From: Candidatus Limnocylindria bacterium
GTDB taxonomy: Bacteria > Chloroflexota > Limnocylindria > QHBO01
NCBI GenBank assembly: GCA_046262115.1
Contig: JBHENJ010000037.1
Location: 22,993 to 86,992 of the forward strand
Length of the DNA stretch: 64,000 nucleotides
Reading direction: 5' to 3'
The first letter of the stretch is position 1, and each line of letters starts with the position of its first letter. Under the pieces are notes generated by a model. That model was not told the origin of the DNA. It did no database searches and saw nothing but the letters and a program-made list of their open reading frames with translations. Below are positions 4,746 to 64,000 of this stretch, one piece after another. The position numbers and the translations under genes were made by a program.

Positions 4746-4751
4746 ACGCGC

Positions 4752-15029: not shown

Positions 15030-15030
15030 C

Positions 15031-15135
15031 TCAGACCTCGCGCGCCACGCGGTCGCGCATCGCCTGCTCGCGTTGCCGCTTGACCAGCTTGCGCAGCCAC
15101 CACACCAGTCCGAAGAGAGCGAGGAATCGGATCAT
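15031..15135 (-). CDS. 34-aa single-TM microprotein (hypothetical)
   Basis: ATG preceded by GAGG 4 nt upstream; MIRFLALFGLVWWLRKLVKRQREQAMRDRVAREV; just downstream of the large membrane protein gene. Confidence 0.3.
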   Translation of the reverse strand: MIRFLALFGLVWWLRKLVKRQREQAMRDRVAREV

Positions 15136-15172
15136 CGCCTCGGGTCAGCGCAAGAACCGCGCCGTGCCGTGG

Positions 15173-47944: not shown

Positions 47945-48274
47945 GTGAAGCTCGTCGCCGCCATCGTCCACAACGAAGACGCCGGCAGCCTGGTCGACGC
48001 GCTCCTCGAGCGCGAGCACCGCGCCACGCGCCTGCACAGCTCGGGCGGCTTCCTCAAGCAGGGCAACGCGACCATCCTGGTCGGCGTCGAGGACGACCGC
48101 GTCGACGACGTGCTCGGGATCATCTCGGCGAACTGCCACTCGCGGCGCCAGTTCGTGAACCCCATGCCGCCGATCCTCGAGCCCGGCGAGTTCTACATGC
48201 CGTACCCGGTCGAGGTGGAGGTCGGCGGCGCGACGGTCTTCGTCGTGCCCGTCGAGCGCTTCGAGCGCATCTAG
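47945..48274 (+). CDS. darA: cyclic-di-AMP receptor DarA/PstA (PII-like)
   Basis: Strong match to YaaQ/DarA incl. C-terminal YVPYPVEVEVGGATVFV; conserved tmk-darA synteny. Confidence 0.8.
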   Translation: MKLVAAIVHNEDAGSLVDALLEREHRATRLHSSGGFLKQGNATILVGVEDDRVDDVLGIISANCHSRRQFVNPMPPILEPGEFYMPYPVEVEVGGATVFVVPVERFERI

Positions 48275-48300
48275 CGCTCGCTCCGCCGTCCGATTGACCG

Positions 48301-48873
48301 ATGGCCGGCTGGATCGACGCCCTGGAGTCCAAGGCGCCGGACGTCGTGGCCGTGTGGCACGTCTGCGACGGCCCGTTCCGCGAGTTCCGTCGCGAGTTGC
48401 GGCGGCGTGCGAGCCGCGAGACGGCGGCGGGCGTACTCAAGCAGCAGGAGGCCGTCGCCGACGTGCTCCGCGACGTGCTCAAGTCGCTCCCCGACGCCGC
48501 CCTGCTGTTGCCCGGCAACGAGGGCGACTGGAACGTGGCGCAGACGTTCGCGCACACCACGGCGGCACGCCGCTTCCTCGCCCGCGGCGCCGCGCTCGCC
48601 GCGACCGGCGGCTGGCCTGCTGACGACCCGCCGACCCCGATCGCCGGCATCCCAGGCCGTGACGCCGACCGGGAGATGCTGCTCGCGCTGCTCGAAAAGT
48701 CCCGGCGCTCGATCGCGGAAAGCGCGGCGCTGATCGCCGGCCACGAAAGCGATCCATGTCCGATGGATCACCCGCTGGTCGGCCATTTGCGCTGCGGAGA
48801 GTGGCTGCTGTTCATCGGCGTCCACGACCTCATGCACCTGGAGCAGCTCGAGACGCTCGCCGCTCGTGTCTGA
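48301..48873 (+). CDS. DinB/YfiT-like (DinB_2) metal-dependent protein
   Basis: His-containing four-helix-bundle motifs (FAHTTAARRF..., HDLMHLEQ). Confidence 0.55.
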   Translation: MAGWIDALESKAPDVVAVWHVCDGPFREFRRELRRRASRETAAGVLKQQEAVADVLRDVLKSLPDAALLLPGNEGDWNVAQTFAHTTAARRFLARGAALAATGGWPADDPPTPIAGIPGRDADREMLLALLEKSRRSIAESAALIAGHESDPCPMDHPLVGHLRCGEWLLFIGVHDLMHLEQLETLAARV

Positions 48874-49957
48874 CGCGCGTGGCGCGCCGGATCGCGCGCC
48901 GCTGGTCCTCCTCGCCGAGCCCGCGGTGGCTGTGACGGGCCCCTACACCGCGCTGGCCGCCGAGGGACGCAGGCTCCTGGGCGACGAGCTGGCGCGGCGG
49001 TTGACGCGAGCTGGAGCTCGGGTCGTGCCAGTCGCCGCCGCGCCCGAGGAGGGCTTCCGGTGGGGGCGCTGGTTCGCCAACGCGGCGCGCCCGCTGCTCG
49101 CCGAGGGCGACGTCGACATGCTCGGATACGCGACCGCGGGGTCGCTCGCACTCGTCGACGACGAGTTCCTGCGCGCGTTGCTCTCACCGGACGACGTCGT
49201 CGTCGTCGCGAACAACCGCTTCAGCGCCGATGCCTTCGTGGTGCGCGGCGACGTGGCGCGCGCCGTATCGGTCCTCGAGGAGGTGGCGAGCGACAACGCC
49301 GCGGTCCGTTGTCTTGCCGACGCCGGTTTCGCCGCCACCGACCTGTCGGACCGACCATTCGCGAGCGCCGATGCGGACACGCCGCAGGACCTCGAGCTGC
49401 TTCGCCTGGGCGGAGCGACAACCGCGTCGCGGTCGATCGCGGAGCTGCCGCGCGTCGGTGATCTCGGGCGCGTTGTTCGCGATCGCAACGCCGAGATCGT
49501 GGTCGCGGGCCGAGTCTCCACGTCCACGGCGCGCTACGTCGAGAGTGAGACGGCGTGCCGGGTGCGGCTCTTCATCGAGGAGCGCGGCATGCGCGCCGGA
49601 CCGGGGGCGCCTCGATCGCTGCTGGCGGCGTGGCTGGATCGTCACGGCGCGACGGCGCTGATCGAGCAGCTCGGATCGCTCGGTGACGCCGTCGTGCTCG
49701 ACACGCGCGTGCTGATGGCGACCATCGGCCGCTCGTCGGATGCGGCGGCCTGGCCGCCGGCCGAGGAACGCTTCGCGTCCGACTTCCTCGACGCGAGCGT
49801 CATCGAGACACCCTGGCTGCGAGACCTGACCGAGGCGGCGAGCGCGAGCCAGATCCCCGTCCTCGTCGGCGCTCACCTGCTCGTCAACGACGGGTTGCGC
49901 ATCCTCGTCCAGCGCGCCTGGGAGGCCGCGGACCTGTCCGAGTCCGCTCCGCGCTAG
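48866..49957 (+). CDS. hypothetical protein
   Basis: 363-aa ORF with coding-like composition, no recognisable motif. Confidence 0.45.
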   Translation: MSDARGAPDRAPLVLLAEPAVAVTGPYTALAAEGRRLLGDELARRLTRAGARVVPVAAAPEEGFRWGRWFANAARPLLAEGDVDMLGYATAGSLALVDDEFLRALLSPDDVVVVANNRFSADAFVVRGDVARAVSVLEEVASDNAAVRCLADAGFAATDLSDRPFASADADTPQDLELLRLGGATTASRSIAELPRVGDLGRVVRDRNAEIVVAGRVSTSTARYVESETACRVRLFIEERGMRAGPGAPRSLLAAWLDRHGATALIEQLGSLGDAVVLDTRVLMATIGRSSDAAAWPPAEERFASDFLDASVIETPWLRDLTEAASASQIPVLVGAHLLVNDGLRILVQRAWEAADLSESAPR

Positions 49958-50069
49958 GACTGCACGTGCCAGGTCGCCGGCCGGCGCAAAAACCGACCGA
50001 AGGAGCGAGCAAGCGCCGGGTCACTCATCGGCCGTGGACCGCCCCCGATGCTAGACTCAACTCAGGACG

Positions 50070-50429
50070 ATGGATCTGACCGGGCTGCTCTACGTCATCG
50101 GTTTCGCGGTGGCCACGACGATCTTCGTGGGCGCCACGATCGCGTTCGCGTGGCTCATCTCGCATCGGCGGCAGCGACCGCAGAAGGGGCTGCCGTACGA
50201 GTCGGGGATCGATACCATCGGCGACACCTGGTCGCGCTTCGGCCTCGCGTTCTACCTCTACGCGCTGCTGTTCGTGGCCTTCGACGTCGAGATCATCTTC
50301 GTGTACCTGTGGGCGACCGTGATCCGGGCGATCTCGATCGAGGGGATCGTGCTCATGGGGATCTTCCTCACGATCCTGATGTTCGGTGAGCTGTACGCAT
50401 GGAAGAAGGGTGACCTTCGATGGCACTAG
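50070..50429 (+). CDS. nuoA: NADH-quinone oxidoreductase subunit A
   Basis: 3-TM NuoA signature. Confidence 0.9.
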
Positions 50430-51082
50430 ATCAGACCGATACGACCCTCACCGGGTCGTCGACGAATGGCGGGAACGGCGGCGGGCCGCTGGTCATCCGT
50501 GACGAGGCCGGCGAGGATCCGGCGCTCCGCGAGTTCGGCATGGAGGACCACCCCCGGGGCGGCTTCCACGGCCTGCTCGAGGTCATCCCCACCAAGGCCG
50601 ATTACGTCCTCGACCTCATCCGCGCGAACTCGCTATGGCCGCTGCTGTCGGGGTTGAGCTGCTGCGCGATCGAGATGATGAGCACGGCGACGGCGGTCAA
50701 CGACATCGACCGATTCGGGATGTTCCCGTTCCGCGCCAGCCCGCGGCAGGCGGACGTGCTGATCGTCGCCGGGACCCTGACGACCAAGATGGCCGGGCCG
50801 CTGGTCCGGCTGTGGGAGCAGATGCCCGAGCCCAAGTGGTGCGTCGCGATGGGAACCTGCACGACGTCGGGCGGTCGCTTCAAGCGGAGCTACAGCGTCG
50901 TGCAGGGCGTGGATCGGCTGATGCCGGTGGACGTCTACGTGCCCGGCTGCCCGCCACGCCCTGAGGGGCTGATCTACGGGATGATGAAGCTCCAGGAGCT
51001 GATCAAGCAGCGCCGCGGCCAGTGGCGCGAGTACGTCGATCGCGGCCCGCAGCGCCAGTCCTGGGAGGGAGACGTCCGATAG
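50420..51082 (+). CDS. nuoB: NADH-quinone oxidoreductase subunit B (N2 cluster)
   Basis: [23 protein letters not shown] cluster-ligand motifs. Confidence 0.9.
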
Positions 51083-51726
51083 CCACCGCCGCTCCGCCGA
51101 GCTCGGGGAGGCTCATCCGGCTCCTCCGCGACCGCTTCGAGATCGACCCGGACCAGGTCTGGGCCGATGGAGGCATCGACGGCGGGCAGGTCGAGATCGA
51201 GATCGGCACTGACCGCATCCACGCCGTGCTGCAGGCGCTGCGCGACGAGGAGGCGTTCGACTTCTACTTCCTCGCCGACCTCGCCGCGGTCGACTACGGG
51301 CCGGGCAATTGGTTCGAGGTGGTCTACCACCTCCACTCGGACCGCCATCCGGCATGGCTGCGCATCCGCACCCGCGTCGACCGGGAGGAGCCGCACGTCC
51401 CGAGCGTCACCGACCTGTGGAAGGGCGCGATGTTCCACGAGCGCGAGGCCTACGACATGATGGGCATCGTCTTCGACGGCAACCGCGACCTGCGGCGGAT
51501 CTTCATGTCGCCGGACTACCGCAGCTTCCCGCAGCGACGCGACTTCCTACTGCCCGATGACGCCGCCGACTCGTCGGCGGCGGGGATCAACCCGCTCGAG
51601 CGTCCCGAAACGTGGGACCTGGGCGCCTTCGCCACCGCGGTCGATCCGGCGGGCACGTGGCCGGCCGCCGACGCGGCATCGGTCGAGGACTCGACCACGC
51701 TGGCCGACGAGAGCCGGCCACGCTGA
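51022..51726 (+). CDS. nuoC: NADH-quinone oxidoreductase subunit C (30 kDa)
   Basis: NuoC core ([26 protein letters not shown]); only in-frame start is GTG 51022 (61-nt overlap with nuoB); CTG at 51061 alternative. Confidence 0.8.
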
Positions 51727-51730
51727 CGCC

Positions 51731-53056
51731 ATGACCGAGTCTACGACGCGACCCGCGACGCCGCCCGAGGAGACCTCGGACGCTCGGCAGGACCAGGCCC
51801 GCGACGAGGACCTGCGGCTCCGCCGCGCGGCAGGCCTCGAGCCGGCGGCGGAGAGCGCGGCGGCGGTCAGGCGGCGGCCCGCGTTCGAGTCGGCGGGCTT
51901 CGAGCAGATCGGGCTTCCGGATCGGCCGCCGCAGACGGAACGCGAGCGCGACTTCTTCACCCTCGGAGAGGGCGAGATGCTGCTCAACATGGGCCCGCAG
52001 CACCCGTCTACGCACGGGGTGATGCGGCTCCTCGCCAAGATCCGCGGCGAGGTCGTGACCGACATGGACCCGGTGCTGGGCTACCTGCACCGCGGGATCG
52101 AGAAGATCTGCGAGAACGCGACCTATACCACCGTCCTGACCTACGTCGACCCGATGGACTACCTGTCGGCGATGCACAACGAGCACGCGCCGGCGATCGC
52201 GTTCGAGAAGCTCTACGGGGTCAAGTGCCCGCCGCGCGCCGAATACATCCGCGCGCTGGTGGTCGAGCTGAACCGCTGCTTCAGCCACGGCCTGATGATC
52301 GGCTTCCTGGGGCTCGACATGGGCGGGCTCACGCCGATTCTGTACAGCTTCATCAACCGCGACGAGATCGTCGACATGCTGTCCGCGATCTCCGGGCAGC
52401 GCATGCTCTTCAACTTCTTCCGCGTCGGCGGGGTGAACTTCGACACCAACGACGAGTTCCTCTCCCGCCTGGGCCGCTGGATGAGCCACGCGCTCAGCAC
52501 GGTGGAGTACAACGAGCGCCTACTCACACAGAACGAGATCTTCACCGCCCGCACGCGTGGGATGGGCGTGCTGACCGGCAGGGAGGCCATCGCGCTGGGC
52601 GTCAGCGGGCCGAACCTGCGCGCCAGCGGCGTGCCGTTCGACGTCCGCAAGGCGCACCCGTACTCGATCTACCCGGAGCTCGAGTTCGACGTCATCACCC
52701 ACGAGAACGGCGACGTCTACGCCCGCTACCTCCAGCGCATCGCCGAGATCAAGCAGAGCATCCACCTGATCGACCAGATCATGGACAAGATGCCGCACGG
52801 TCCCGTGCAGGCGCAGGTGCCGGGCATCATCCGGCCGCGGCCCGGCCGGGCATACGCGGCCATCGAGAGCCCGCGCGGGCTGTACAGCGTCTACGTCATC
52901 AGCGACGGCGGCCCCAACCCGTATCGGTTCCGCATGCGCGACCCGAGCTACATCAGCCTCCAGGCCATCCCGCACCTCATGCCCGGGCACCTGCTCGCCG
53001 ACACCATGGCGATCATGGCGAGCTTCGACCCGGTCATGGGTGGCGTCGACAAGTAG
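51731..53056 (+). CDS. nuoD: NADH-quinone oxidoreductase subunit D (49 kDa), with ~60-aa N-terminal extension
   Basis: GPQHPSTHG, no [NiFe] Cys motifs; ATG 4 nt after nuoC stop. Confidence 0.9.
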   Translation: MTESTTRPATPPEETSDARQDQARDEDLRLRRAAGLEPAAESAAAVRRRPAFESAGFEQIGLPDRPPQTERERDFFTLGEGEMLLNMGPQHPSTHGVMRLLAKIRGEVVTDMDPVLGYLHRGIEKICENATYTTVLTYVDPMDYLSAMHNEHAPAIAFEKLYGVKCPPRAEYIRALVVELNRCFSHGLMIGFLGLDMGGLTPILYSFINRDEIVDMLSAISGQRMLFNFFRVGGVNFDTNDEFLSRLGRWMSHALSTVEYNERLLTQNEIFTARTRGMGVLTGREAIALGVSGPNLRASGVPFDVRKAHPYSIYPELEFDVITHENGDVYARYLQRIAEIKQSIHLIDQIMDKMPHGPVQAQVPGIIRPRPGRAYAAIESPRGLYSVYVISDGGPNPYRFRMRDPSYISLQAIPHLMPGHLLADTMAIMASFDPVMGGVDK

Positions 53057-53076
53057 CCACGCCCCCGGGCTGACCC

Positions 53077-54096
53077 ATGGACTTCGAGCTCGTCCTGGGG
53101 ATCCTTCGCTTCCTCCTGGCGACCACGCTGCTGCTCCTGCTCACCGTGCCGAGCGCGTTCCTGATCATCTACCTCGAGCTGAAGGTGATCGCGCTCATGC
53201 AGCTGCGCATCGGTCCCAACCGGGTCGGCCCGTATGGGATCTTCCAGGCTGCGATCCACGGCTTCAAGGTGCTCGGCAAGGAGGACGTCAGTCCGGACCA
53301 GGCCGACAAGCCGATGTTCACCATCGCCCCGTGGATGGTGTTCATGGCCTCGGCGATGAGCATGCTCGTCATCCCGTTCGCGCCCGGGCTGATCGCCGCG
53401 GACTTCAACATCGGCGTCATCTACTTCTTCGCCGTCATCGGCCTCTCGGTGGTCGGGCTGCTGGTCGCCGGCTGGGCGAGCTACAACAAGTACTCGCTCC
53501 TCGGCGGGCTGCGCAGCGCGGCGCAGATGGTGAGTTACGAGATCCCGCTGACGCTCTCCGTGGTCGGCGTGGTGATCCTCGCGGGAACCCTGTCGTTCAG
53601 CGACATCATCGAGTGGCAGCGGCTGCACGGCTGGGCGGTGCTGTGGCAGCTGCTGGGCTTCCCGATCTTCTATATCGCATCGACGGCCGAGATCAATCGG
53701 GCGCCGTTCGACCTGGTGGAGGCCGATTCGGAGATCGTCGCCGGCTTCGCCACCGAGTACTCCGGCATGCGCTTCGGCTTCTTCTTCTTCGCCGAGTACG
53801 TGAGCCTGTTCATCATGAGCGCGATCGTGGTGGCGCTCTTCTTCGGCGGCTGGCTGGCGCCGTGGCCGTTCCCCGCCGAGCTCGACCCGGAATGGGGCAT
53901 CCTGCGCTCGATCTACGGGCTGCTGTGGTTCTTCGGCAAGACCTACTTCTTCGTCTTCGTCTCGATCTGGCTGCGCGCCACGCTGCCGCGAGTGCGGGTC
54001 GACCAGCTGATGGGGCTGGCGTGGAAGGTGCTCCTGCCGCTGGCGCTGGTGAACCTGTTCGTGACCGCGATCGTCGTCGCGGTCTTCGAGCTCTAA
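53077..54096 (+). CDS. nuoH: NADH-quinone oxidoreductase subunit H
   Basis: 8-TM NuoH/ND1 signature. Confidence 0.9.
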   Translation: MDFELVLGILRFLLATTLLLLLTVPSAFLIIYLELKVIALMQLRIGPNRVGPYGIFQAAIHGFKVLGKEDVSPDQADKPMFTIAPWMVFMASAMSMLVIPFAPGLIAADFNIGVIYFFAVIGLSVVGLLVAGWASYNKYSLLGGLRSAAQMVSYEIPLTLSVVGVVILAGTLSFSDIIEWQRLHGWAVLWQLLGFPIFYIASTAEINRAPFDLVEADSEIVAGFATEYSGMRFGFFFFAEYVSLFIMSAIVVALFFGGWLAPWPFPAELDPEWGILRSIYGLLWFFGKTYFFVFVSIWLRATLPRVRVDQLMGLAWKVLLPLALVNLFVTAIVVAVFEL

Positions 54097-54117
54097 CCGC
54101 AAGGAGCGCATAGGCAA

Positions 54118-54957
54118 ATGGCTGTGGTCGGCGTCGGGATCCTCAAGGGCATGGCGACGACGCTGCGCAACCTGTTCGCGGCCAAGGTCACGCGCCAGTA
54201 CCCCGAGGTCCGGCCGGAGATCCCCGACCGATGGCGTGGCCGCCTCGACCTGATCTACGACGCCTTCGGCGAGCACAAGTGCGAGGTCTGCTTCCAGTGC
54301 GCGCAGGTCTGCCCGGTCGAGGCGATCGACATGAGCGGCTTCGACCAGGAGGGGAACCGGATCCGCTACGGCGTCCCGGAGATCTACGACGAGCGCAAGG
54401 ACCCCAACGCCTACCGCCGGGCGGGCCTGCCGGCGCGGCCGATGCGCAACCCGGCCCGCTGGGACGAGGGAATCGACACGCCGTTCGTGACCGAGGTCGT
54501 CGCGCGCTATCACGCGCGTCCCGAGGCACTGGTGGCGATCTTCAACGCCGTGCAAGCGCGGTTCGGGTACCTCCCCGAGCGGGCGCTGCGCATCATCAGC
54601 GACCGCATGACGATCCACTGGGCGCAGGTCTTCGGCGCCGCCGGGCTCGGCGGGTTCCGCCTGCTCCCCGCCGAGGGCCACGTCATCACCGTGTGCGACT
54701 GCGCCGCGTGCCGCTTCGCGGGCGGCGATCGCCTGCTGGCGGCGCTGCGCGAGCAGCTGGGCGTGGCGCCGGGCGAGACCACCGCCGACGGCCGCTTCAC
54801 GCTCGAGGTCGACTCGGATGTCGCTGCCGGCACCATCGCGCCGGCGATCCGCGTCGACACCCTGGTCTACGGGCCCGTGACGCCGGACCAGGCGCTGCAC
54901 ATCCTGAACGAGCGCCGTCGGACCGCGGACGAGCGCACCGCAACGCCCGTCAGCTGA
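54118..54957 (+). CDS. NuoI-like (single 4Fe-4S motif) fused to NuoE-like thioredoxin-fold domain
   Basis: AAGGAG RBS; N-half matches NuoI but only one CxxCxxCxxxCP (CEVCFQCAQVCP); C-half matches NuoE but has only CDCAAC (second Cys pair absent). Confidence 0.7.
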   Translation: MAVVGVGILKGMATTLRNLFAAKVTRQYPEVRPEIPDRWRGRLDLIYDAFGEHKCEVCFQCAQVCPVEAIDMSGFDQEGNRIRYGVPEIYDERKDPNAYRRAGLPARPMRNPARWDEGIDTPFVTEVVARYHARPEALVAIFNAVQARFGYLPERALRIISDRMTIHWAQVFGAAGLGGFRLLPAEGHVITVCDCAACRFAGGDRLLAALREQLGVAPGETTADGRFTLEVDSDVAAGTIAPAIRVDTLVYGPVTPDQALHILNERRRTADERTATPVS

Positions 54958-54959
54958 CC

Positions 54960-56357
54960 GTGGCGACCAACCTCTCGCCCGGCATCACCAGCGTGCCGGG
55001 CGGCGAGCCGCGGCTGCTGACCGACATCGGTCGGGTGGACCCGGACACCATCGGCAGCTATCTCGAGCTCGGCGGATACGCCGGACTGCGGCGCGCGATC
55101 GAGCAACTATCGCCCGAGCAGGTCATCACGGAGGTGGAGGCCGCTGGCCTGCGTGGCCGCGGCGGAGCCGGCTATCCCGCGGCGGCCAAGTGGCGCGTCG
55201 CGCGCGGCGAGGAGGCGGCCCGCAAGATCGTCGTCGCCAACGTGATGGGCGCCGATCCCGCCGCGCTGGGCGACCGGGCGCTCGCCGAGGGCAACCCTCA
55301 CCTGATCCTCGAGGGGCTGCTGATCGCGGCGTTCGCTGTCGGCGCCGGCGAGGCGATCATCGCGGTGCGCCGCGACTGGACGCTCGCCATCGAGCGGCTG
55401 CGCCGCGCCATCGCTGAGGCCGATGAGGCCCATCTCGGCGGACCGCTGATTCTCGGCACCGACGTCAGCGTCGCGGTCAGCGTCTGGGAGGGATCGGGCG
55501 CCTACGTCGCCGGCGAGGAGACCGCACTGATGCACGCCCTCCAGGGCGACCGAGGCATGCCCATGATCCGGCCGCCCTACCCCGCCGAGCGCGGCCTGTG
55601 GGGCGTGCCGACCGTCATCCAGGGCGCCGAGACGCTGGCGCACGTGGCGTGGATCCTCCTGCACTCCGAGGAGGCGTTCCGCTCGGTGGGCAGCGAGGCG
55701 TCGCACGGCACGAAGCTCGTCACGCTCCAGGGCCGCGTCCGGAACCCCGGCCTGATGGAGATCGCGATGGGCACGCCGCTGCTCGCAGTCCTCGAGGCAG
55801 CGGGCGGCGGGAGCGGCGTCACCAAGGCGCTCTTCGTGGGCGGGCCCGGCGGCGGGGCGATCGCCGACGAGGGGCTCAACACGCCGTTCGACTACGAGCC
55901 ACTTGCCGCGGCGGGCGCCGTCGTCGGCTCGGGCTCGATCCTCGTGACCGACACCGACACCTGCATGGTCGACACGGCACGCTTCTTCCTGAACTTCTCG
56001 TCGCGTGAGGCCTGCGGCAAGGCGGTCCCGTGTCGCATCGGCACCAAGCGTCTCGTCGAGGCGCTGGACCGCGTGCTGGCTGCGCGCCCGCGGCCAGACG
56101 ACTTCACGCTCCTCCGAGCCCTCTCACGCAAGGTGGCCGATACGGCCCTCTGCCAGCTCGAGGCGCTCGCGCCTCAGCCGATGCTCACCACGCTCGCTCT
56201 CTTCCCGGAGGAGTACCGCGCGCACGCCGAGCGCGGCGAGTGCCTTGCCGGCGCATGCGACGTGAGCGGCGTGACGCCGCTCCTCCAGCCGCTTACCGAC
56301 CTCGACCCCACCCCGCAGCTCGCGACCGAGGCCGATACCGCGCCGCCCGCGAACTGA
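54960..56357 (+). CDS. NuoF-like (51 kDa) subunit, divergent
   Basis: GLRGRGGAGYP NADH-binding loop, FMN-region AGEETALMHAL...PTV; Fe-S motif reads ACGKAVPC (second Cys replaced by Ala); GTG start at 54960. Confidence 0.75.
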   Translation: MATNLSPGITSVPGGEPRLLTDIGRVDPDTIGSYLELGGYAGLRRAIEQLSPEQVITEVEAAGLRGRGGAGYPAAAKWRVARGEEAARKIVVANVMGADPAALGDRALAEGNPHLILEGLLIAAFAVGAGEAIIAVRRDWTLAIERLRRAIAEADEAHLGGPLILGTDVSVAVSVWEGSGAYVAGEETALMHALQGDRGMPMIRPPYPAERGLWGVPTVIQGAETLAHVAWILLHSEEAFRSVGSEASHGTKLVTLQGRVRNPGLMEIAMGTPLLAVLEAAGGGSGVTKALFVGGPGGGAIADEGLNTPFDYEPLAAAGAVVGSGSILVTDTDTCMVDTARFFLNFSSREACGKAVPCRIGTKRLVEALDRVLAARPRPDDFTLLRALSRKVADTALCQLEALAPQPMLTTLALFPEEYRAHAERGECLAGACDVSGVTPLLQPLTDLDPTPQLATEADTAPPAN

Positions 56358-56710
56358 CCGCAACGGCGCCACCGCGCCGACTCGTACTGAGCCGCGATAC
56401 GGCATGACTCCATCCAGCCGGCGGCATAACGGCACCCGCGTGTCGCTGCATCCGGTTGAGATATGGAGCGTATGCCAGTTAGTAACGTCGGCGACCGCCG
56501 GGGGCGCTCGGATATGCCAGGCATCCATGTTCTCGCGCCGCGATCGCGCGAGGCATGTCAGTAATAAGGCACGACTGCATATCTGCGCCCCGATCCCGGC
56601 TGGGAGCGTTGGATTAGGCGCCCGGTGCATACACCGCCGCCAGGCGGGCAAAACGGACCCTTGGCGCGCGATGAACGGCTCGCCGAAAGTGCCGGTACCA
56701 TAGCGGCGCG

Positions 56711-59167
56711 ATGACGTTCGGCTCGACCAACGGTCACGGCCCCGGCGGCCCCGGCGGCCCCGGCGGACCCGGCGGACCCGGCGGCGACGGAGTGGGCGCG
56801 CGCGAGGGCGACGGCGTCCACGCCACGCGATCGGTCGTCGACGAGTACACGCCCCTGTGGCCGATGGTCCCGGGCACGAAGCCACTTGCCGTCACCCTGA
56901 ACGGCGCGGAGGTGCTCGCCGAGGAAGGGCAGACGATCCTCCAGCTCTGCCGCGTGCAGAACGTGGAGATCCCTACGCTGTGCTACGAGCCCAAGCTCGC
57001 GCCGTACGGCGCGTGCCGCATCTGCGTCGTCGAGGTCGAGGGCGCCGCCGGAACGCCGATCTCCTGCGGCACCCAGGTCGAGGAGGGGATGGTCATCACC
57101 ACCCACTCCGACCGCGTGCTCGAGAACAGGCGCATGGTCCTGGAGCTCATCTTCAGCGACCACGACGCGTACTGCCTGCCGCCGTGCCAGTTCAAGTGCC
57201 CGACCCGCGTCGACATCCCGGGCTACCTGAAGCAGAACACGCTGGGCAACTGGGAAGAGGCAACGCGCATCCTCAAGCGCTCCCTGCCGTTCCCCGCGAT
57301 CCTGGGCCGTGTCTGCCCCGCGCCGTGCGAGACGCACTGCCGGCGCGAGGAGGTGGACACGCCGATCGCGATCCGCGACAGCCACCGGTATTGCGCGGAC
57401 CGCGTGCTCGAGGTCGACGCCCCGGCGCCGATCCCGTGGCCCAAGGAGCCGCCGAGCGGCAAGCGGGTGGCAGTCATCGGCGCCGGACCGGCGGGACTGG
57501 CAAACGCCTACTACCTCCAGCTGCGCGGCCACCAGTGCGACGTCTACGAGGCCGATCCGGAGCAGGGCGGCATGCTGCGCTACGGCATCCCGCAGTACCG
57601 GCTGCCCAAGGGCTGGATGGACCGCGAGCTGAACCACGTCTGGGAGCTGGGCGCGACGTTCCACCCGAACATGCGGCTGGGCCGCGACTTCCACCTCGCC
57701 GATCTGAAGGCCCAGGGCTACGACGCGATCTACGTGAGCATCGGCTGCTACAAGCCCAACGAGCTGGGCATCCCGGGCGAGGACGCCGACGGCGTCATCA
57801 ACGCGCTCGAGAACCTCTACAACTCGACGCGCGGCATCCCGATCCCGCGGCTGCGCGACTCGCGGATCGTGGTCATCGGCGGCGGGTTCACGGCGATCGA
57901 CTGCACGCGGACCAGCATCCGCCAGGGCGCCGCCGAGGTGAACCTCGTCTACCGCCGCGACCTGAAGGACATGCCGGCGCAGGACGAGGTGCACGAGGCG
58001 ATCGAGGAGGGGGCGCGGGTCATCTTCCAGGCCGCGCCGACGCGGATCATCACCGACGAGCGCAATCGCGTCACCGGCATGGAGTTCCAGCGCATGAAGC
58101 TGGGCGAACCCGATGAGAAGGGCCGCCGCCGCCCGACGCCCATGGCGGGCACCGAGTTCGTGATCGAATGCGACGTGGTACTGGGAGCCATCGGTCAGGG
58201 ACCCGAGCTGTCATGGATCGAGAGCGAGCCGGAAGAGATCCGCAACGGCCTCACGGTGAGCCGGCGCAACACCCTCGAGTCCGAGGAGGACACCTTCCGC
58301 ACCGGGGTCGACGGCATCTTCGTCTCGGGCGACGTGCGGACCGGGTCGGCGACCGTGGTCGAGGCCATCGGGGAGGCGCGGCGCGCCTCGTACGCCATGG
58401 ACTACTGGCTGCGCGGCCACGACCTGGACGATCCGCAGGTGCGCCGCATCGTCGCCGAGCCGCAGCCGCAGTTCCTGACCATCGTGCCCTTCACGGACGA
58501 CGTGAAGGAGCCGCGCGCGATCATGGGCAAGCTGGGCGCCGAGGACCGCAAGACGAACTTCGGCGAGTACGAGCACGGCTACACCCACGACCAGGCGATG
58601 GCCGAGGCGGGCCGATGTCTCCAGTGCACCTGCGAGGCCATCGGCCACTGCGACCTCCGCGAGGCGGCGATCGAATACGAGACGACGCTCAACATGGCGA
58701 TCGACGAGCGCTCGATCCAGGACAACCCGTACGTCGGGGTCAACCACGGCTACGGCCGGGACGAGACGCACTCCTTCATCCTGCGCGACTACTCGCGCTG
58801 CATCGACTGCGGCCGATGCGCGCAGGTCTGCAAGGACATCGTGGGCGCCGGCTGTTACGACTTCATCCGCAAGGGCTTCGACTCACTGGTCACGACGGCC
58901 GATGAGGTCTCGCTCAACGAGACCCCGTGCGTCTCATGCGGCCGGTGCGCGGAGACGTGTCCGGTCGGCGCGCTCATGCCGCGGCCGCGGATCCTGGAGA
59001 CGTATCAGCTCGACGTCGCGCGCTGCATCTTCTGCGGCATCTGCGCCGATGCCTGCCCGTACGACGCCCTGCGCTGCGGGCCGGAGTTCGAGTTCAGCGA
59101 GTACCAGCGCGACCTGCCGATGCTCGACATCCTGGAGATGTCCGACCGGGAGCGGCCAACGCGCTGA
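56711..59167 (+). CDS. mosaic redox protein: NuoG-type 2Fe-2S N-terminus + GltD-like NAD(P)H/FAD oxidoreductase + NuoG/NuoI-like 4Fe-4S ferredoxin C-terminus
   Basis: LCYEPKLAPYGACRICVVEV (2Fe-2S); GltD-like Cys clusters, VAVIGAGPAGL and GGGFTAIDC dinucleotide motifs; C-terminal CIDCGRCAQVC, CVSCGRCAETCP, CIFCGICADACP motifs. Confidence 0.75.
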   Translation: MTFGSTNGHGPGGPGGPGGPGGPGGDGVGAREGDGVHATRSVVDEYTPLWPMVPGTKPLAVTLNGAEVLAEEGQTILQLCRVQNVEIPTLCYEPKLAPYGACRICVVEVEGAAGTPISCGTQVEEGMVITTHSDRVLENRRMVLELIFSDHDAYCLPPCQFKCPTRVDIPGYLKQNTLGNWEEATRILKRSLPFPAILGRVCPAPCETHCRREEVDTPIAIRDSHRYCADRVLEVDAPAPIPWPKEPPSGKRVAVIGAGPAGLANAYYLQLRGHQCDVYEADPEQGGMLRYGIPQYRLPKGWMDRELNHVWELGATFHPNMRLGRDFHLADLKAQGYDAIYVSIGCYKPNELGIPGEDADGVINALENLYNSTRGIPIPRLRDSRIVVIGGGFTAIDCTRTSIRQGAAEVNLVYRRDLKDMPAQDEVHEAIEEGARVIFQAAPTRIITDERNRVTGMEFQRMKLGEPDEKGRRRPTPMAGTEFVIECDVVLGAIGQGPELSWIESEPEEIRNGLTVSRRNTLESEEDTFRTGVDGIFVSGDVRTGSATVVEAIGEARRASYAMDYWLRGHDLDDPQVRRIVAEPQPQFLTIVPFTDDVKEPRAIMGKLGAEDRKTNFGEYEHGYTHDQAMAEAGRCLQCTCEAIGHCDLREAAIEYETTLNMAIDERSIQDNPYVGVNHGYGRDETHSFILRDYSRCIDCGRCAQVCKDIVGAGCYDFIRKGFDSLVTTADEVSLNETPCVSCGRCAETCPVGALMPRPRILETYQLDVARCIFCGICADACPYDALRCGPEFEFSEYQRDLPMLDILEMSDRERPTR

Positions 59168-59211
59168 TCTCCGGACCGAACGGCCTTGGCGGATCGGCGG
59201 CTCTCGTCCGC

Positions 59212-59240
59212 GACACCGGATTCGCGGCGCGAATCGGGTG
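59212..59240 (+). terminator. GC-rich hairpin after the 818-aa gene (candidate terminator)
   Basis: ccggattcgcg-gc-gcgaatcggg near-perfect inverted repeat; no clear U-tract. Confidence 0.3.
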
Positions 59241-59264
59241 GTGAAGTGCACGTCCTGCGGCCGA

Positions 59265-59484
59265 GGCGTATTCGTCCGGTGAATGTATCGGTCAATCCTC
59301 GGGCCTCAATCGTCCTTTGGTTGGCCGTCGACGCTCACCGTAGTCGCCTGACGCATGGCGTGATCACGAATGGCCCGTCCGATCCGGCATCGAAGGACGT
59401 CGTTGTCCGATAGATCCGTCGGGCGAATACCGACCCCCTGCGGCGCGTCGACCGTTGCACCGCATTCGTCGGCCGAATCCGATG
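59265..59484 (+). repeat. ~220-bp noncoding repeat element, copy A
   Basis: ~75-80% identical to 61391..61609 in direct orientation with conserved blocks GGTGAATGTATCGG, GAATGGmCCGTCCGA, TTGTCCGATAsATCCGTCGGGCGAATAC, CCGAATCCG; 5' block and internal block are mutually complementary (long-range stem). Confidence 0.55.
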
Positions 59485-59530
59485 GGCGGCGGCGGCCGTG
59501 GATGTGCGACTTGCGACGGTAACGTGGCTC

Positions 59531-60505
59531 GTGAAAGCGATCGTTCGGTCGGAGTACGGGACGCCTGACATCCTCCGGCTCGAGGAGATCCCAACCCCCG
59601 AGCCCGGTGACGGTGAGGTGCTGGTCAGAATCCGGGCGTCATCGGTCAACCGAACGGATCTGGAGTCACTCGCGGGCAGACCGCTGGTGTATCGGGCGTT
59701 CATGGGGCTGCGCAGGCCTCGCAACGGACGGCTTGGGCTGGACGCCGCGGGCGAAGTCGAGGCGGTCGGGCCGGGCGTGGAGCGCTTCAAGCCGGGCGAC
59801 AAGGTGTTCGCGGATCTGCTCTACCACGGGATGTGCGCCTTCGCGGAGTACGCCTGCGCGCGGGAGAAGGCGTGGCGCCCGATCCCTGACGGCGTCGACT
59901 TCGAGACGGCGGCGACGCTGCCGGCGTCGGCGGTGCTCGCGCTCCAGGGACTCGGCGGCCGCGACGGCGTCCGCGCGGGCGAGCGGGTTCTCATCATCGG
60001 CGCCTCCGGGTCGGTCGGGATCTTCGCGGTGCAACTTGCGAAGGCAGCCGGGGCGCACGTGACCGGCGTGTCGAGCGCCGGGAAGTTCGATCTCGTCCGC
60101 TCCATCGGTGCCGACGACGTCATCGACTACGCCCGCGAGAACTACACGCGCGGCGACCGACGCTACGACCGCATCCTCGATGCCGTCGCGATGCACTCCG
60201 TTTTCTCGGTGCGCCGCGCCCTGACCGCTGGCGGCGTCTACGGCGCCCACGGCGGTCGGTCGAGCGGCGGCCTCCTCCAGGCGATGGCGCTCGGGCCTTT
60301 GCTCTCCGTGGGGCGCAAGCGGCGGATCGGGGTCGTGATGGGCAGACCGAACGACGCCGCGGACCTCGCGACCGTGGGCGAGATGGTGCGGGCGGGCACG
60401 CTGGTCCCGCTGATCGATCGCACCTTCACGCTCGCTGGGGTGCCCGAGGCGTTGCGCATCTATGCAGCGGGTGAGGCGCGCGGCAAGCTCGTGATCAGGA
60501 TCTGA
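59531..60505 (+). CDS. zinc-type alcohol dehydrogenase/quinone oxidoreductase (MDR family)
   Basis: MKAIVRSEYG start (GTG), GxGxxG (GASGSVGIFAVQLAK); listed start 59498 extends into repeat A. Confidence 0.8.
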   Translation: MKAIVRSEYGTPDILRLEEIPTPEPGDGEVLVRIRASSVNRTDLESLAGRPLVYRAFMGLRRPRNGRLGLDAAGEVEAVGPGVERFKPGDKVFADLLYHGMCAFAEYACAREKAWRPIPDGVDFETAATLPASAVLALQGLGGRDGVRAGERVLIIGASGSVGIFAVQLAKAAGAHVTGVSSAGKFDLVRSIGADDVIDYARENYTRGDRRYDRILDAVAMHSVFSVRRALTAGGVYGAHGGRSSGGLLQAMALGPLLSVGRKRRIGVVMGRPNDAADLATVGEMVRAGTLVPLIDRTFTLAGVPEALRIYAAGEARGKLVIRI

Positions 60506-60532
60506 CGGGCGCCAAAGTCCAAGGAGGCCGAT

Positions 60533-60946
60533 GTGGAGATCCGACCGAAGCCGCCGTCCAGGAAGGGCGGCTCCGACATGTTCATCGGCGACGTCTGGAT
60601 CGACCAGATCACCGGGGGCGAGGGCGGCTCGCGCATCCGGGTCAACGTCGTGCGCTTCGCACCCGGCGCGCGCAACGCCTGGCACGCGCACGCGCTCGGT
60701 CAGACGCTACACGTGACCGAGGGCCTCGGGCGGACCCAGGCGCGCGGCGGCGACGTCATCGAGATCCGGCCCGGCGACACGATCTATACCGCGCCGCGCG
60801 AGTGGCACTGGCACGGGGCTGGGCCCGACCACTTCATGACCCACGTCGCGATCTGGGAGGCGCCCGCGGAAGGGCCCGAGACCGAGTTCGCCGAGCAGGT
60901 TACGGACGCCGAGTACGACGCCGAGGGTGCGGATCGCGGCCGGTAA
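60533..60946 (+). CDS. cupin-domain protein
   Basis: AAGGAGG RBS; cupin motifs (NAWHAHALGQTLHVTEG, GDTIYTAPREWHWHGA). Confidence 0.7.
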   Translation: MEIRPKPPSRKGGSDMFIGDVWIDQITGGEGGSRIRVNVVRFAPGARNAWHAHALGQTLHVTEGLGRTQARGGDVIEIRPGDTIYTAPREWHWHGAGPDHFMTHVAIWEAPAEGPETEFAEQVTDAEYDAEGADRGR

Positions 60947-60966
60947 CCGACCGTGTACGGCCTCGG

Positions 60967-61332
60967 CTACATCGCTTCCGTCATCGGGCTCATGAGCTGG
61001 AAGTAGTTGCCGTCGGGATCGCTGAACGTGGCGATCAGGAACTCCGGCGGACCACCGGGGTTGTAGGGCTCGCGGACGACGGTCGCGCCGGCGGCGACGA
61101 ATCGGTCGAAATCGGCCTTGACGTCCTCGCTCTCGATGTTCCAGATCAGGCGGCCCGGCTGCGGATTCTTGCCGGTGACCTCATCGTGCGCGCCGATGCT
61201 GATGAAGCCGTTGCCGAGCTGCCACCCGGTGTACGCGCTGTCCTCGAAGCCCGGCTTGCCGAGGACCCTTGTGTAGAACTCCGTCAGGGCCTTTGGGTTC
61301 TCGGAGCCGATCAGGATGCTGTTGAAGTTCAC
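60967..61332 (-). CDS. VOC/glyoxalase-family protein
   Basis: AAAGGAGGAG RBS 5 nt before GTG (MNFNSILIG...); listed longer N-terminus rejected. Confidence 0.75.
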   Translation of the reverse strand: MNFNSILIGSENPKALTEFYTRVLGKPGFEDSAYTGWQLGNGFISIGAHDEVTGKNPQPGRLIWNIESEDVKADFDRFVAAGATVVREPYNPGGPPEFLIATFSDPDGNYFQLMSPMTEAM

Positions 61333-61390
61333 GCTCTCCTCCTTTGACGCTAGTCGGCGATGGATGACCGATCCGTATCGATCGGCGTCG

Positions 61391-61609
61391 GCGCGTTCGT
61401 GCGGTGAATGTATCGGCCATTCTTCGGTCGCGATCGGTACGTAGATCGCCGCCCGACGCGCACCGCAGTCGCTCGGTGCATGCCTTGACGCTGAATGGAC
61501 CGTCCGAGCCACACGGCGACGATCTACTTGTCCGATACATCCGTCGGGCGAATACGGATCGGCGACCGAGCTTTGACCGTTTCACCGTATTCACCAGCCG
61601 AATCCGGTG
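61391..61609 (+). repeat. ~220-bp noncoding repeat element, copy B
   Basis: Direct repeat of 59265..59484; here the 5' GAATGTATCGG and downstream CCGATACATCC are perfectly complementary. Confidence 0.55.
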
Positions 61610-61645
61610 CTAGCGAGGTCCGCCTGGCGACCTGGATCCGCGTCG

Positions 61646-62157
61646 TCACGACGTTGGCGGCACCTCGATGACGCGGCCATTCGCGACGCCGAAGTCCCAG
61701 ACATCGATGTCGGGCGGCTCAACGCCGAGCGCCGTGAGCGCAGTGCAGATCTGGCTCCGATGATCGCTGCCGTGATGCAGCGCCTGCGCGAGCCGGATGC
61801 CGATCGGCGCGTCTCTCTGATACCCGTCGTCCTCGTCGACCTCGCGCACGACGGCGTCGGGATCGAGGCCCTCTGCCAGGAACCGCGACCAAGCGGCGCC
61901 GTTGCGCTCCATGACGCCCCGGAGCTCGGCAAGGCCCATGCGCTCGTCGTCGATGGCGTGGGTCCGATCGCCAGTCAGATAGAACAGGTACCCGGCGTCG
62001 CCGCCGATGAAGTGGCGCTGCGTGTCGAGGATCGAGCCGTAGGTCCCGGGCACGACGCTGTCGAGCTGCTCCGGCTCAGCTCGACGCACGCATCGATCAA
62101 ACGCAGCGTCGCCCACACGTGGTGGGCGAACGCGTCTGCCATCAGGGATCTGCTCAT
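61646..62157 (-). pseudogene. DinB_2-family protein with apparent -1 frameshift
   Basis: N-terminus (MADAFAHHVWATLRLIDACVELS) in one frame, remainder (AEPEQLDSVVPG...HHGSDHRSQI...) in another; switch around 62075-62085. Confidence 0.5.
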
Positions 62158-62167
62158 CTCGTCCGCG

Positions 62168-62908
62168 ACTATAGCGACGAGCGAAGACGCGTCCGCGGCA
62201 GCCGATCAGCCCTTCTCGAGCACCTCCCGAGCTCCAGCAGCCGATCGCGCCAGTAGGCCTTCATCCGGTCGGCCGTCGACTCATCGGGAAGCCACTCGTG
62301 CCCGATCGTGACCACCGTCTTCGCGTCGCCCTTGGCGGTGAAGTAGACGACGACGATCGATGTCGGGTCGTCCCAGTCGAAGCGGACCGATGTTGCCGAT
62401 TTCGTCGGCCGCTGTCGCAGTGAGACGCCCGCGAGCCAGAGGCCCGCTGCGCCGCATCGGTGAAGGCGGCGAACGCACGGTCCGCCGACGCGTTGATCGT
62501 GCGGTTGACCGTGATCGTGAACCCGGTCGCCATCTGTCCCTTGGCGCGGAGGCCCCGTGCTCGCTCATAGCCGACGGTGACGCTTTGCGCCCACCAGCCG
62601 TCGACGCCGTGCTCCTCGCGCAGCCAGTGCGCGATCTCCGGGTGGCGACGTTCCGTGCCACCCCACTCGTCGAGGAGGCCGAACCAATCGGTCCAGCCCC
62701 TGCCGGTCGCGCTGCGGATGGCTTCATCGGTCGTCGGCATCTCGACGGCGGACTCGGCCGGCGCAACGGCCGGCGCCGATGTCTCTCCCGACGCTCCGGC
62801 GCCTGCATCGGCTCGGCGGATCAGCTGGGCCCGAGCCGCGGTGTACGACTCGCCGGTCTTCTCGGAGCGCGCGCGGACGCGGCGCTTGAAGGTCTTCTGC
62901 GTGGGCAT
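62168..62908 (-). pseudogene. DUF4287-like N-domain + SRPBCC/AHSA1-like C-domain protein with apparent frameshift
   Basis: Frame 1 reads MPTQKTFKRRV...TITVNRTINASADRAFAAFTDAAQ then low-complexity; SRPBCC-like continuation (SVRFDWDDPTSIVVVYFTAKGDAKTVVTIGHEWLPDEST...) is in another frame; 3' end uncertain. Confidence 0.4.
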
Positions 62909-63099
62909 GATTCGCTTCCTTCCCGCGACGGCGCTCCGGACTCACGCTCCCTTGCTCCGTCGAGAGAGGGCGAAACACGTCCCGGGGAAGCGAGTTCCCC
63001 TTTTCCCGCGAGGCCGATGGCGTGAGCACCGGATTCGGGGTTCGGCTGGGAGACGCCGTTGCGCGAGAGTCTAGCGCGCAGTCACAGTCGAATGGAAGA

Positions 63100-63627
63100 C
63101 CGATGCTCGACGTCACCATCCGCCCCGAACGCCCGGGCGAGGCCGATGCGGTCCGCGCCGTCAACGACGCTGCCTTCGGCGAGCCCGTCGAGGGCCGCAT
63201 CGTCGACGACATCCGTGGCACGGACCGATGGATCGACGGCGGGTCGCTCGTCGCGGAGGACGCCAGTGGCCGCATCGTGGGCCACCTCCTGCTCAGCGAA
63301 GGCGACCTCGAGACCGATTCCGGCGCGGCGCGCCGGATCTGGATGCTCGGCCCGGTGGCGGTGCTCCCCGCGGTGCAGCGGCGGGGCGTCGGCGCGGCGC
63401 TGATGCGCGCGGCGATCGAGCTCGCGACTTCACGCGGACAGCCGCTGATCTGTCTGCTCGGCCACGCCAGCTACTACCCACGGTTCGGCTTCGAGCCGGC
63501 GCGAGAAATCGGCATCCAACCGCCGCGACCGTGGCGCGACGCGAACTGGATGGCGCTGCGCCTCCCCGCCTGGACGCCGGATCTCCGCGGCGCCGCCCGC
63601 TACCCCTCCGCGTTCCCCGACGACTGA
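63100..63627 (+). CDS. GNAT family N-acetyltransferase
   Basis: Acetyl-CoA motif (VQRRGVGAALMRAAIE); start at MLDVTIRPE. Confidence 0.75.
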   Translation, partial: PMLDVTIRPERPGEADAVRAVNDAAFGEPVEGRIVDDIRGTDRWIDGGSLVAEDASGRIVGHLLLSEGDLETDSGAARRIWMLGPVAVLPAVQRRGVGAALMRAAIELATSRGQPLICLLGHASYYPRFGFEPAREIGIQPPRPWRDANWMALRLPAWTPDLRGAARYPSAFPDD

Positions 63628-63654
63628 CCCTGGGCCACCCGACGCTCGGCACAA

Positions 63655-63690
63655 AGGAAAACGCCCGCTATAGCGGACGTTTCTACGCAC
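63655..63690 (+). terminator. hairpin + T-tract downstream of GNAT gene (candidate intrinsic terminator)
   Basis: aacgcccgc-tata-gcggacgtt stem-loop followed by tct. Confidence 0.4.
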
Positions 63691-63869
63691 CAGGGGCTCG
63701 GAACACTTGTGGAATCTTTAGCAATGATCCCACCCCTTGCGGGGCCGCCCTGTTGTTCCCTGGTGCGCGAGGACCATAGCGGCCGCGCCGAGCGGTCGTC
63801 AAATGCGCACCCTGCGCCGGGTCATCCGGATCTCGTAGCGGCGGCTGCGCCTCGATCTGGTCGGCGACT

Positions 63870-64000
63870 CTAGGCTCGCGGATTCGGCCGATGTTCGAGC
63901 GCCGCCACGGCATCGGTCAGGAAGGCCCTCGCATCCGGGTGCTTGCCTTCGGCGTGGAGCCGGAGCGCGACGTCGAGTGACTCGGCGGCGACCCACCAGT
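63870..64000 (-). CDS. hypothetical protein, 3' end only (runs off window)
   Basis: Reading frame ...AAESLDVALRLHAEGKHPDARAFLTDAVAALEHRPNPRA* helical/TPR-like. Confidence 0.3.
   Translation of the reverse strand, partial: WWVAAESLDVALRLHAEGKHPDARAFLTDAVAALEHRPNPRA

Follow-up and report, generated by a model that had tools for sequence, protein, structure and literature searches.

Complex I is usually defined as an NADH:quinone oxidoreductase, and NuoI is one of its 14 invariant core subunits. In the structure of the transhydrogenase StnABC, electrons pass from FAD/NADPH through two GltD clusters to NuoG-like clusters and on towards the flavoprotein, and the FdhF-like domain of StnC is required for the formation of tetramers (PMC10482914). 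In NfnABC, the FMN and the clusters B1 and C1 jointly constitute the bifurcating site (PMC12018979). The accessible text of Schut et al. (2022, PMC9304861) describes predicted "Nuo-Bfu" complexes of 14 subunits with a full bifurcating BfuB in Deferribacteres, Proteobacteria, Planctomycetes and Nitrospirae, and according to a remark in another paper, NuoI is replaced by a GltD-like flavoprotein in some mbx-like operons (PMC4758237). Here we analyze a complex-I-like gene cluster at positions 50070 to 59167 of a 64,000-nucleotide stretch (the window) from a Candidatus Limnocylindria bacterium (contig JBHENJ010000037.1, assembly GCA_046262115.1). A literature search returned no description of its layout, the nearest being the Nuo-Bfu complexes, as far as the accessible text of that source goes, and the mbx-like remark; to the extent of this search, the locus appears to be a complex I variant not previously described, and one probably able to use NADPH.

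The cluster consists of eight strongly coding genes on the + strand, with a G+C content at third codon positions (GC3) of 0.91 to 0.96 in a window of ~70% G+C. We consider it probable that these genes form the front of an interrupted 13-gene Limnocylindria complex I operon, in which the input module comes from a transhydrogenase of the Stn/NfnABC type (Bfu family) and NuoI is split between two proteins. The operon would most likely read nuoA-B-C-D-H, a fusion of the N-terminal half of NuoI with a NuoE-like domain (the E-fusion protein), a NuoF-like (F-like) protein, a NuoG-like (G-like) protein with a GltD domain that ends in the C-terminal half of NuoI (the mosaic protein), and nuoJ-K-L-M-N. 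The features of the cluster are as follows.

50070 to 50429, + strand: nuoA, 119 aa; Pfam Oxidored_q4, E 1.7e-30; about three predicted membrane helices.
50420 to 51082, + strand: nuoB, 220 aa; Pfam Oxidored_q6; carrier of cluster N2.
51022 to 51726 (open reading frame), + strand: nuoC; Pfam Complex1_30kDa, E 5.9e-39; overlaps the end of nuoB, true start uncertain.
51731 (ATG) to 53056, + strand: nuoD, 441 aa; Pfam Complex1_49kDa; the ATG lies 5 nt past the nuoC stop.
53077 to 54096, + strand: nuoH, 339 aa; Pfam NADHdh, E 1e-114; about seven predicted membrane helices.
54118 to 54957, + strand: E-fusion protein, 279 aa; one 4Fe-4S motif and a 2Fe-2S_thioredx domain (Pfam).
54960 (GTG) to 56357, + strand: NuoF/BfuB-like core, 465 aa; Pfam Complex1_51K, SLBB and NADH_4Fe-4S.
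56358 to 56710: non-coding spacer of 353 bp between the F-like and mosaic genes.
56711 to 59167, + strand: mosaic protein, 818 aa; Pfam Fer2_4, Fer4_20, Pyr_redox_2, Fer4_Nqo3 and Fer4.

Profile searches against Pfam and NCBIfam bore out the gene identities (nuoA, B, C, D and H, the NuoF-like gene and the 818-aa mosaic) that had been proposed in the sequence-only reading, an annotation made earlier from the letters of the window. Its description of a non-canonical complex I locus likewise agrees with the Pfam, structure and NCBIfam comparisons, both in the fusion or alteration of peripheral-arm genes and in an input domain of the NAD(P)H type. NuoB and NuoH score above NCBIfam cutoffs (TIGR01957, 222.9 vs 142.7, and NF005012 for NuoB; NF004741, 335.1 vs 305, for NuoH), as does NuoD (NF004739, 415.7 vs 360), while NuoC falls slightly below its own (TIGR01961, 118.5 vs 122.45) and NuoA, which is 75-88% identical to the copies in relatives, passes Pfam (105.6 vs 23.3) and no NCBIfam equivalog. 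All four N2 cysteines (CC...C...C-P) are seen in the NuoB translation. The closest solved structure to NuoD is Thermus thermophilus Nqo4 (E 1.4e-91); the quinone-pocket motifs GPQHPSTHG and DYL are retained, and the C-terminus, DPVMGGVDK, holds no cysteines, as in the quinone-reducing type, which has no NiFe cysteines. Low-complexity N-terminal extensions precede the part alignable to complex I in both NuoD (~80 residues, 51731-51975) and NuoB (~50 residues, 50420-50580).

A scan of one genome per species gave 80 related loci, and a tblastn map covers 84. The 80 scanned loci are overwhelmingly labelled as Limnocylindria or Chloroflexota metagenome-assembled genomes, with a few other phylum labels, and show 81-90% identity to the mosaic protein, homologues of which number in the thousands. 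Gene tables of the related loci L001, L002 and L004 and the 84-locus map gave one conserved order: DarA, DinB, an unknown gene, nuoA-B-C-D-H, E-fusion, F-like, mosaic, a spacer and nuoJ-K-L-M-N, with the mosaic gene in L001, L002 and L004 followed by Oxidored_q3, Oxidored_q2 and three Proton_antipo genes. A nuoJ match lies downstream of the mosaic gene on the same strand in 65 of the 84 loci (64 plus a nuoJ fragment in L003), at a distance of 141 to 6741 bp (median 1037 bp, 90th percentile 2675 bp). Each of the 19 loci with no nuoJ match has less than 4.7 kb of sequence past the mosaic gene, and no relative with enough downstream sequence is without nuoJ. Five relatives have spacers of 4.0 to 6.7 kb, with nuoJ-N after them. 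The spacer cargo comprises a glyoxalase, VanZ and an iron permease in L004, and a HAD hydrolase, an ECF sigma factor, an MFS transporter and unknown proteins in L056, L071, L072 and L073. Since both cargo and length vary among species, the junction between the mosaic gene and nuoJ is an insertion hot-spot. L003 (ENA ERZ25039541 contig_107320, 8153-15311) holds the E-like domain, the F-like protein, a mosaic protein (85% identical) and a fragment of nuoJ (residues 1-89), and no nuoA-H; many of its neighbor genes look fragmented, indicating either a degraded operon or an error-rich assembly.

No single protein at the locus carries both NuoI motifs; rather, NuoI is represented by two complementary halves on different polypeptides. 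Residues ~1-90 of the E-fusion protein correspond to the N-terminal half with the first CxxCxxCxxxCP motif (C55, C58, C61, C65), and residues 8-90 align to NuoI residues 23-82 of E. coli and 7-88 of M. smegmatis. The C-terminal half is found at residues ~758-818 of the mosaic protein (C772, C775, C778, C782-P, FEF), and the last 68 residues of that protein align to E. coli NuoI 90-128 and Nqo9 85-126 (E ~1e-12). Against the NCBIfam NuoI model TIGR01971 (121 positions), the E-fusion protein covers positions 1-77 (52.5 bits) and mosaic residues 760-801 cover positions 71-112 (55.6 bits), each singly below the cutoff of 113. When the halves were joined in silico, they gave one colinear alignment to NuoI/TYKY of bacteria, plants and mammals (E 2e-22), stronger than that of either half alone (E 1e-9 and 8e-13). 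The first cysteine motif is invariant in the E-fusion proteins of 67 relatives and the second is present in the mosaic proteins of 84 of 85, and the gene tables of L001, L002 and L004 contain no further NuoI-like gene from nuoH to nuoJ. The earlier assignment of a NuoI/NuoE-like fusion is therefore correct as to the fusion, but only the N-terminal half of NuoI is in it, the C-terminal half being on the 818-aa protein. Side by side, the halves would restore the two-cluster ferredoxin fold (N6a/N6b) from which N2 in NuoB receives its electrons.

The remaining parts of the input module resemble Stn- and Nfn-type proteins far more than NuoE, NuoF and NuoG. Among solved structures, the E-like domain (residues ~118-266) matches NfnC, HydC and StnA with E-values of ~1e-23 to 1e-21, compared with 1e-13 at best for NuoE. 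The F-like protein matches 9bov_B, HydABCSL subunit B, StnB and NfnB at 1e-118 to 1e-121, compared with 1e-80 for NuoF, and mosaic residues 59-782 align to the first ~700 residues of 9bov_A (5e-172), StnC (1e-143) and NfnA (1e-138). All three proteins fall below the cutoffs of the corresponding Nuo models: 62.2 vs 142.4 for the E-like domain (NuoE, TIGR01958), 338.2 vs 558.65 for the F-like protein (NuoF, TIGR01959) and 84.5 vs 470.05 for the mosaic protein (NuoG, TIGR01973).

Several cofactor sites of the E-like and F-like proteins depart from the canonical pattern. In the 2Fe-2S site of the E-like domain, C193-x-C195-xx-C198 is invariant, whereas the second cysteine pair is replaced in all 67 relatives, by Asp or Glu at 234 in 58 of them and by Gly at 238 in 66. 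The N3/B1 motif of the F-like protein holds three cysteines, C-G-K-A-x-P-C...C; its Ala is kept in 73 of 74 relatives, L002 having Thr instead, and the C-x2-A-x2-C...C spacing resembles [3Fe-4S] signatures. In addition, CNADEGDPGAF is changed to A-N-(L/V)-(M/I)-(G/A)-A-D-P, and these F-like motif changes are kept in 73-74 of the 74 relatives. At residue 225, in the FMN loop, the window has Q-G-A-E-T and 72 of 74 relatives have Q-N-(A/G)-E-T, where the canonical sequence is NNVET; one more conserved Asn has thus been lost here than in the relatives. The match of the F-like protein spans only the core (residues ~107-525 of chains of 584-630), without the N- and C-terminal Fe-S domains. Since the B1 and C1 sites, which together with FMN form the bifurcating site of NfnABC, are both altered, bifurcation has probably been lost in the Limnocylindria input module, and ferredoxin-linked bifurcation seems unlikely.

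The mosaic protein, in contrast to the altered sites of its two partners, retains its predicted sites. A [2Fe-2S] domain comes first; after it stands, as an insertion, an intact FAD/NADPH domain of the GltD type, which has two 4Fe-4S sites, and then a CxxCxCx5C site and a ferredoxin domain (2x[4Fe-4S]). All cysteines of the assigned Fe-S sites are present in at least 84 of 85 relatives. Across 81 sequences, most glycines of the dinucleotide motifs are invariant, among them G257, G259 and G262 of the first motif and G390-G392, as is the NADPH signature Y414-R415-R416. The polypeptide stops at residue 818, without the molybdopterin-like (FdhF-like) domain, while StnC and 9bov_A extend ~470 residues further. 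At its N-terminus (56711-56850) lies a Gly-Pro-Gly repeat, GPGGPGGPGGPGGPGG, which makes it ~22 residues longer than its closest relatives (796-798 aa).

The ratio of nonsynonymous to synonymous substitution rates (dN/dS), calculated for pairs pre-filtered to 85-98.5% amino-acid identity and rough in its values, was 0.14 for the E-fusion, 0.12 for the F-like and 0.15 for the mosaic gene, and 0.14-0.155 for nuoB, D and H. Since the input genes are at the level of the core subunits, they are not decaying. The E-like and F-like genes had been called degenerate, and their being pseudogenes is ruled out by dN/dS values (0.12-0.14) equal to those of the core subunits.

The resemblance of the three input proteins to StnABC and NfnABC over almost their full length raises the alternative that they form a soluble NADH/NADPH/ferredoxin transhydrogenase encoded inside a nuo operon, leaving an 11-subunit membrane enzyme dependent on ferredoxin or another donor; the occurrence of the trio without nuoA-H in L003 could be read in the same way. 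We regard this as highly improbable, however, since both NuoI halves are covalently fused to the trio, the operon has no other NuoI gene, and the position of the trio between nuoH and nuoJ is kept in distant lineages. The trio is also without the terminal Fe-S domains of BfuB, a four-Cys B1 and a four-Cys C1, features tied to bifurcation and ferredoxin binding (PMC12018979 and the accessible text of PMC9304861), and the mosaic protein is without the FdhF-like domain needed for StnC tetramers (PMC10482914).

In the window itself, tblastn with nuoJ-N of L001 gave no match over the whole 64 kb, and the only open reading frames with at least six predicted membrane helices encode a Na/Ca exchanger, an O-antigen ligase-like protein, a PAP2 protein and a ZIP transporter. 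These two surveys extend to the full 64 kb the absence of nearby nuoJ-N that the sequence-only reading had reported. Its statement that they are missing from the 5 kb downstream holds as to the absence, but the distance is that from the end of the mosaic gene at 59167 to the window end at 64000, or 4833 bp, so that the absence is limited by the edge. From the arrangement in relatives, nuoJ-N of this genome most likely lie just beyond the window end, behind an insert of at least 4.8 kb, and a move elsewhere in the genome is less likely. The missing arm thus most probably reflects the window edge together with a lineage-specific insertion hot-spot, and with nuoJ-N expected past the window a complete proton-pumping quinone reductase is expected.

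Several observations weigh against an interrupted but otherwise complete operon with a split NuoI. The window's spacer of at least 4.83 kb is in the upper tail of the distribution, being exceeded in just one of 65 relatives. No NuoM from the window genome is among the best 120 matches (83-94% identity) to NuoM of L082, although the window genome is only ~76-81% identical to L082 in most subunits, below the range of those matches. L003 shows that degraded versions of the locus exist. In AlphaFold2 models, the mean predicted local distance difference test score (pLDDT) was 59.7 for the mosaic protein (81 sequences), with residues 621-818 below 50, and 40.6 for the virtual NuoI chimera (single sequence), values too low to indicate which Cys motifs pair, and a Pfam dicluster model also allows the last two mosaic motifs to pair within the mosaic protein. 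Finally, donor specificity and cofactor occupancy are predicted from motifs alone.

The absence of nuoJ-N from the 64-kb window, the lack of a match from this genome in the NuoM search and the single relative with a spacer longer than that visible here would also suit a stand-alone Q-module with NuoA, NuoH and the input proteins, that is, a non-pumping NAD(P)H:quinone oxidoreductase that uses the complex I quinone site without NuoJ-N. Such a complex without the antiporter arm, as proposed in the sequence-only reading, was not borne out: the same series of genes is followed by nuoJ-N in 65 related loci, these genes being present and on the same strand wherever a relative's sequence reaches far enough downstream, and the window ends at 4.83 kb. 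NuoA and NuoH make the membrane heel with NuoJ and NuoK, and to our knowledge none of the characterized complex-I-like enzymes (Nuo, NDH-1, Fpo, Mbh, Mbx, Ech, Hyc) is entirely without antiporter-like subunits, both of which count against it. We therefore give this explanation very little credence.

A true split or decay of the operon, in which nuoJ-N have been relocated or are being lost as in L003 and the eight genes remain as a separate transcription unit or relic, seems unlikely, though it deserves some weight. Consistent with it, the spacer lies in the extreme tail of the distribution and its genes have no counterpart in relatives, L003 is a rearranged locus with a truncated nuoJ, and the window-specific 353-bp spacer already breaks the cluster between the F-like and mosaic genes. 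Nevertheless, each of the eight genes is intact (GC3 0.91-0.96), purifying selection acts on the family, and the five relatives with spacers of 4.0-6.7 kb still have nuoJ-N after them. The sequence-only reading had allowed that its proposal might come down to an operon split; the nuoJ-N genes downstream in relatives do point to an interrupted or split operon. An interrupted operon, continuing past the window, remains the reading that we favor.

The sequence between the mosaic gene and the window edge contains five genes, identified by Pfam.

59498 to 60505, + strand: Zn-ADH.
60533 to 60946, + strand: cupin.
60967 to 61512, - strand: glyoxalase.
62261 to 62908, - strand: DUF4287.
63022 to 63627, + strand: GNAT acetyltransferase.

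None of these five genes gave a tblastn match at E up to 1e-3 in the 84 related loci. A misassembly at 59167 was considered, and there is no evidence for one; the downstream genes share the GC3 of the remaining genes. A direct repeat of ~225 bp with 72% identity occurs at 59265-59484, just past the mosaic gene, and at 61390-61609, where it runs into the 5' end of the glyoxalase gene; the repeat may be the remnant of a duplicated or displaced gene tied to the insertion at the mosaic-nuoJ junction. Upstream of the cluster, Pfam identified PdxS, an AAA/R3H protein, a c-di-AMP receptor (DarA) and a DinB-family protein, together with an unknown gene, none of them nuo-related, and the earlier statement that the flanking genes are unrelated to nuo is confirmed. 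Directly 5' of nuoA (47945-49957) are DarA, the DinB-family protein and a protein of 363 aa that matched neither Pfam nor NCBIfam. The synteny of this trio is kept in most related loci that cover the upstream region, and the 363-aa protein, which is only ~50% identical across related loci, could be an accessory or assembly factor.

The 353-bp spacer at 56358-56710 is seen in this genome only, the relatives having an overlap or a short gap there, and its G+C is apparently below that of its surroundings. No frame in it has coding GC3, and it gave no blastn match in the 84 related loci; it might be an internal promoter site or an insertion scar. An Rfam scan of 49500-64000 gave no match at E up to 1, and a promoter/terminator scan of 49500-61000 found no promoter-like site and one terminator-like site, within nuoH, as expected by chance.

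The split of NuoI extends beyond the Limnocylindria. A search of 1.8 billion cluster representatives identified full-length fusions of the NuoI N-half with an E-like domain down to 30% identity, several of which keep the canonical four 2Fe-2S cysteines. In three loci, L085, L086 and L087, this fusion directly follows nuoH, as in the Limnocylindria. In L085 (68% G+C), nuoA-B-C-D-H and the fusion are accompanied by a complete BfuB, the motifs of which are canonical. In L086 (49% G+C), nuoH and the fusion are joined by a BfuB of 1048 aa that carries a C-terminal GltD domain and by a NuoG-like protein of 265 aa with the C-half of NuoI at its end, a second fusion layout seen at 1321-6023; nuoJ-N come next. 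Unlike those of the Limnocylindria, the E-like 2Fe-2S cysteines of L085 and L086 are canonical, and their BfuB proteins carry CN[GA][DE]EG[DE]PG, NNVET and SC[GS]KCVPCR and retain the N-terminal 2Fe-2S domain; moreover, in L086 it is the F-like protein that carries the GltD domain, at its C-terminus, and not the G-like protein, where the Limnocylindria have it as an insert. Split NuoI together with a flavin domain of the NADPH type thus marks out a wider family, in which at least two fusion layouts occur. The split-NuoI layout is older than the Limnocylindria, which hold a reduced form.

These features suggest how the complex may have arisen and how it could work. A transhydrogenase of the Stn/NfnABC type would have been stripped down and joined to the Q-module by the splitting of NuoI: the E-like protein would have received the N-terminal helix and first Cys motif of NuoI, and the G-like protein its second Cys motif and C-terminus. 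Since StnABC has an FAD/NADPH chain and the same chain here leads by way of the ferredoxin domain to a NuoI half, we infer a path from NADPH to quinone. Electrons would enter from NADPH at the FAD of the GltD-like domain and pass through its two 4Fe-4S clusters to the NuoG-like cluster chain, from there to the clusters of the split NuoI, and on to N2 and (mena)quinone. Proton pumping would take place via NuoH, A, J, K, L, M and N, with the membrane arm as encoded downstream in relatives, and the F-like/E-like pair could be either a scaffold or a second, modified entry point for NADH. More specifically, and only tentatively, the Limnocylindria complex I may accept NADPH, or NADPH and NADH, through a GltD flavin wired into the NuoG-like chain, with NuoI supplied by two polypeptides, a remodeled FMN site (possibly three-Cys or [3Fe-4S]) and L085 and L086 marking a stepwise conversion of a soluble transhydrogenase; taken as a whole, this fuller proposal is possible rather than probable.

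If true, this arrangement would widen the known electron-donor range of the complex I pump and provide a natural split two-cluster ferredoxin at the junction of input module and Q-module. It would also record the recruitment of a soluble Stn/Nfn-type transhydrogenase to a respiratory complex, which bears on the acquisition of the N-module in evolution. The Limnocylindria are an abundant, largely uncultured class of soil and freshwater Chloroflexota. In databases, these proteins are named "formate dehydrogenase major subunit", "glutamate synthase beta-like" and "NuoE". Given such names, NuoG and NuoI could be overlooked when the metabolism of Limnocylindria is reconstructed, or complex I wrongly scored as incomplete.

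Compared with canonical complex I (Nqo1-14 and E. coli Nuo), the locus has orthologous NuoA, B, C, D and H, its relatives also have NuoJ-N, and the overall logic of a nucleotide-linked flavin, an Fe-S chain, N2 and quinone is shared. In contrast to canonical complex I, nuoH stands ahead of the input genes, NuoI consists of two halves carried on other subunits, the N1a and N3 sites are short of cysteines, the G-like protein has a GltD-type NADPH/FAD insert and no molybdopterin-like domain, and the E-, F- and G-like proteins miss the NuoE, NuoF and NuoG cutoffs. For each of the three input proteins, the best matches of solved structure are StnABC and NfnABC (PDB 8oh5 and 9n5u; also 9bov), and the first ~700 residues of StnC and NfnA share with the mosaic protein the [2Fe-2S] domain, the GltD insertion with FAD/NADPH and the ferredoxin domain. 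Unlike StnABC and NfnABC, the Limnocylindria module is predicted to be linked to the membrane through the fused NuoI halves and has no FdhF-like C-terminal domain, while its F-like protein is without the extra Fe-S domains of BfuB, its B1 site reads C-x2-A-x2-C...C and its C1 site is without the second Cys pair. It is set apart from the Nuo-Bfu complexes, as the accessible text of PMC9304861 presents them, by the GltD/NADPH domain, the split NuoI and its occurrence in Chloroflexi, which that text does not mention, and its F-like protein is without the ferredoxin domain that, according to the same text, was required in the search for BfuB homologues. What it has in common with the Nuo-Bfu complexes described there (PMC9304861) is the replacement of NuoEFG by a BfuABC-type module in the middle of a complex-I-like operon.

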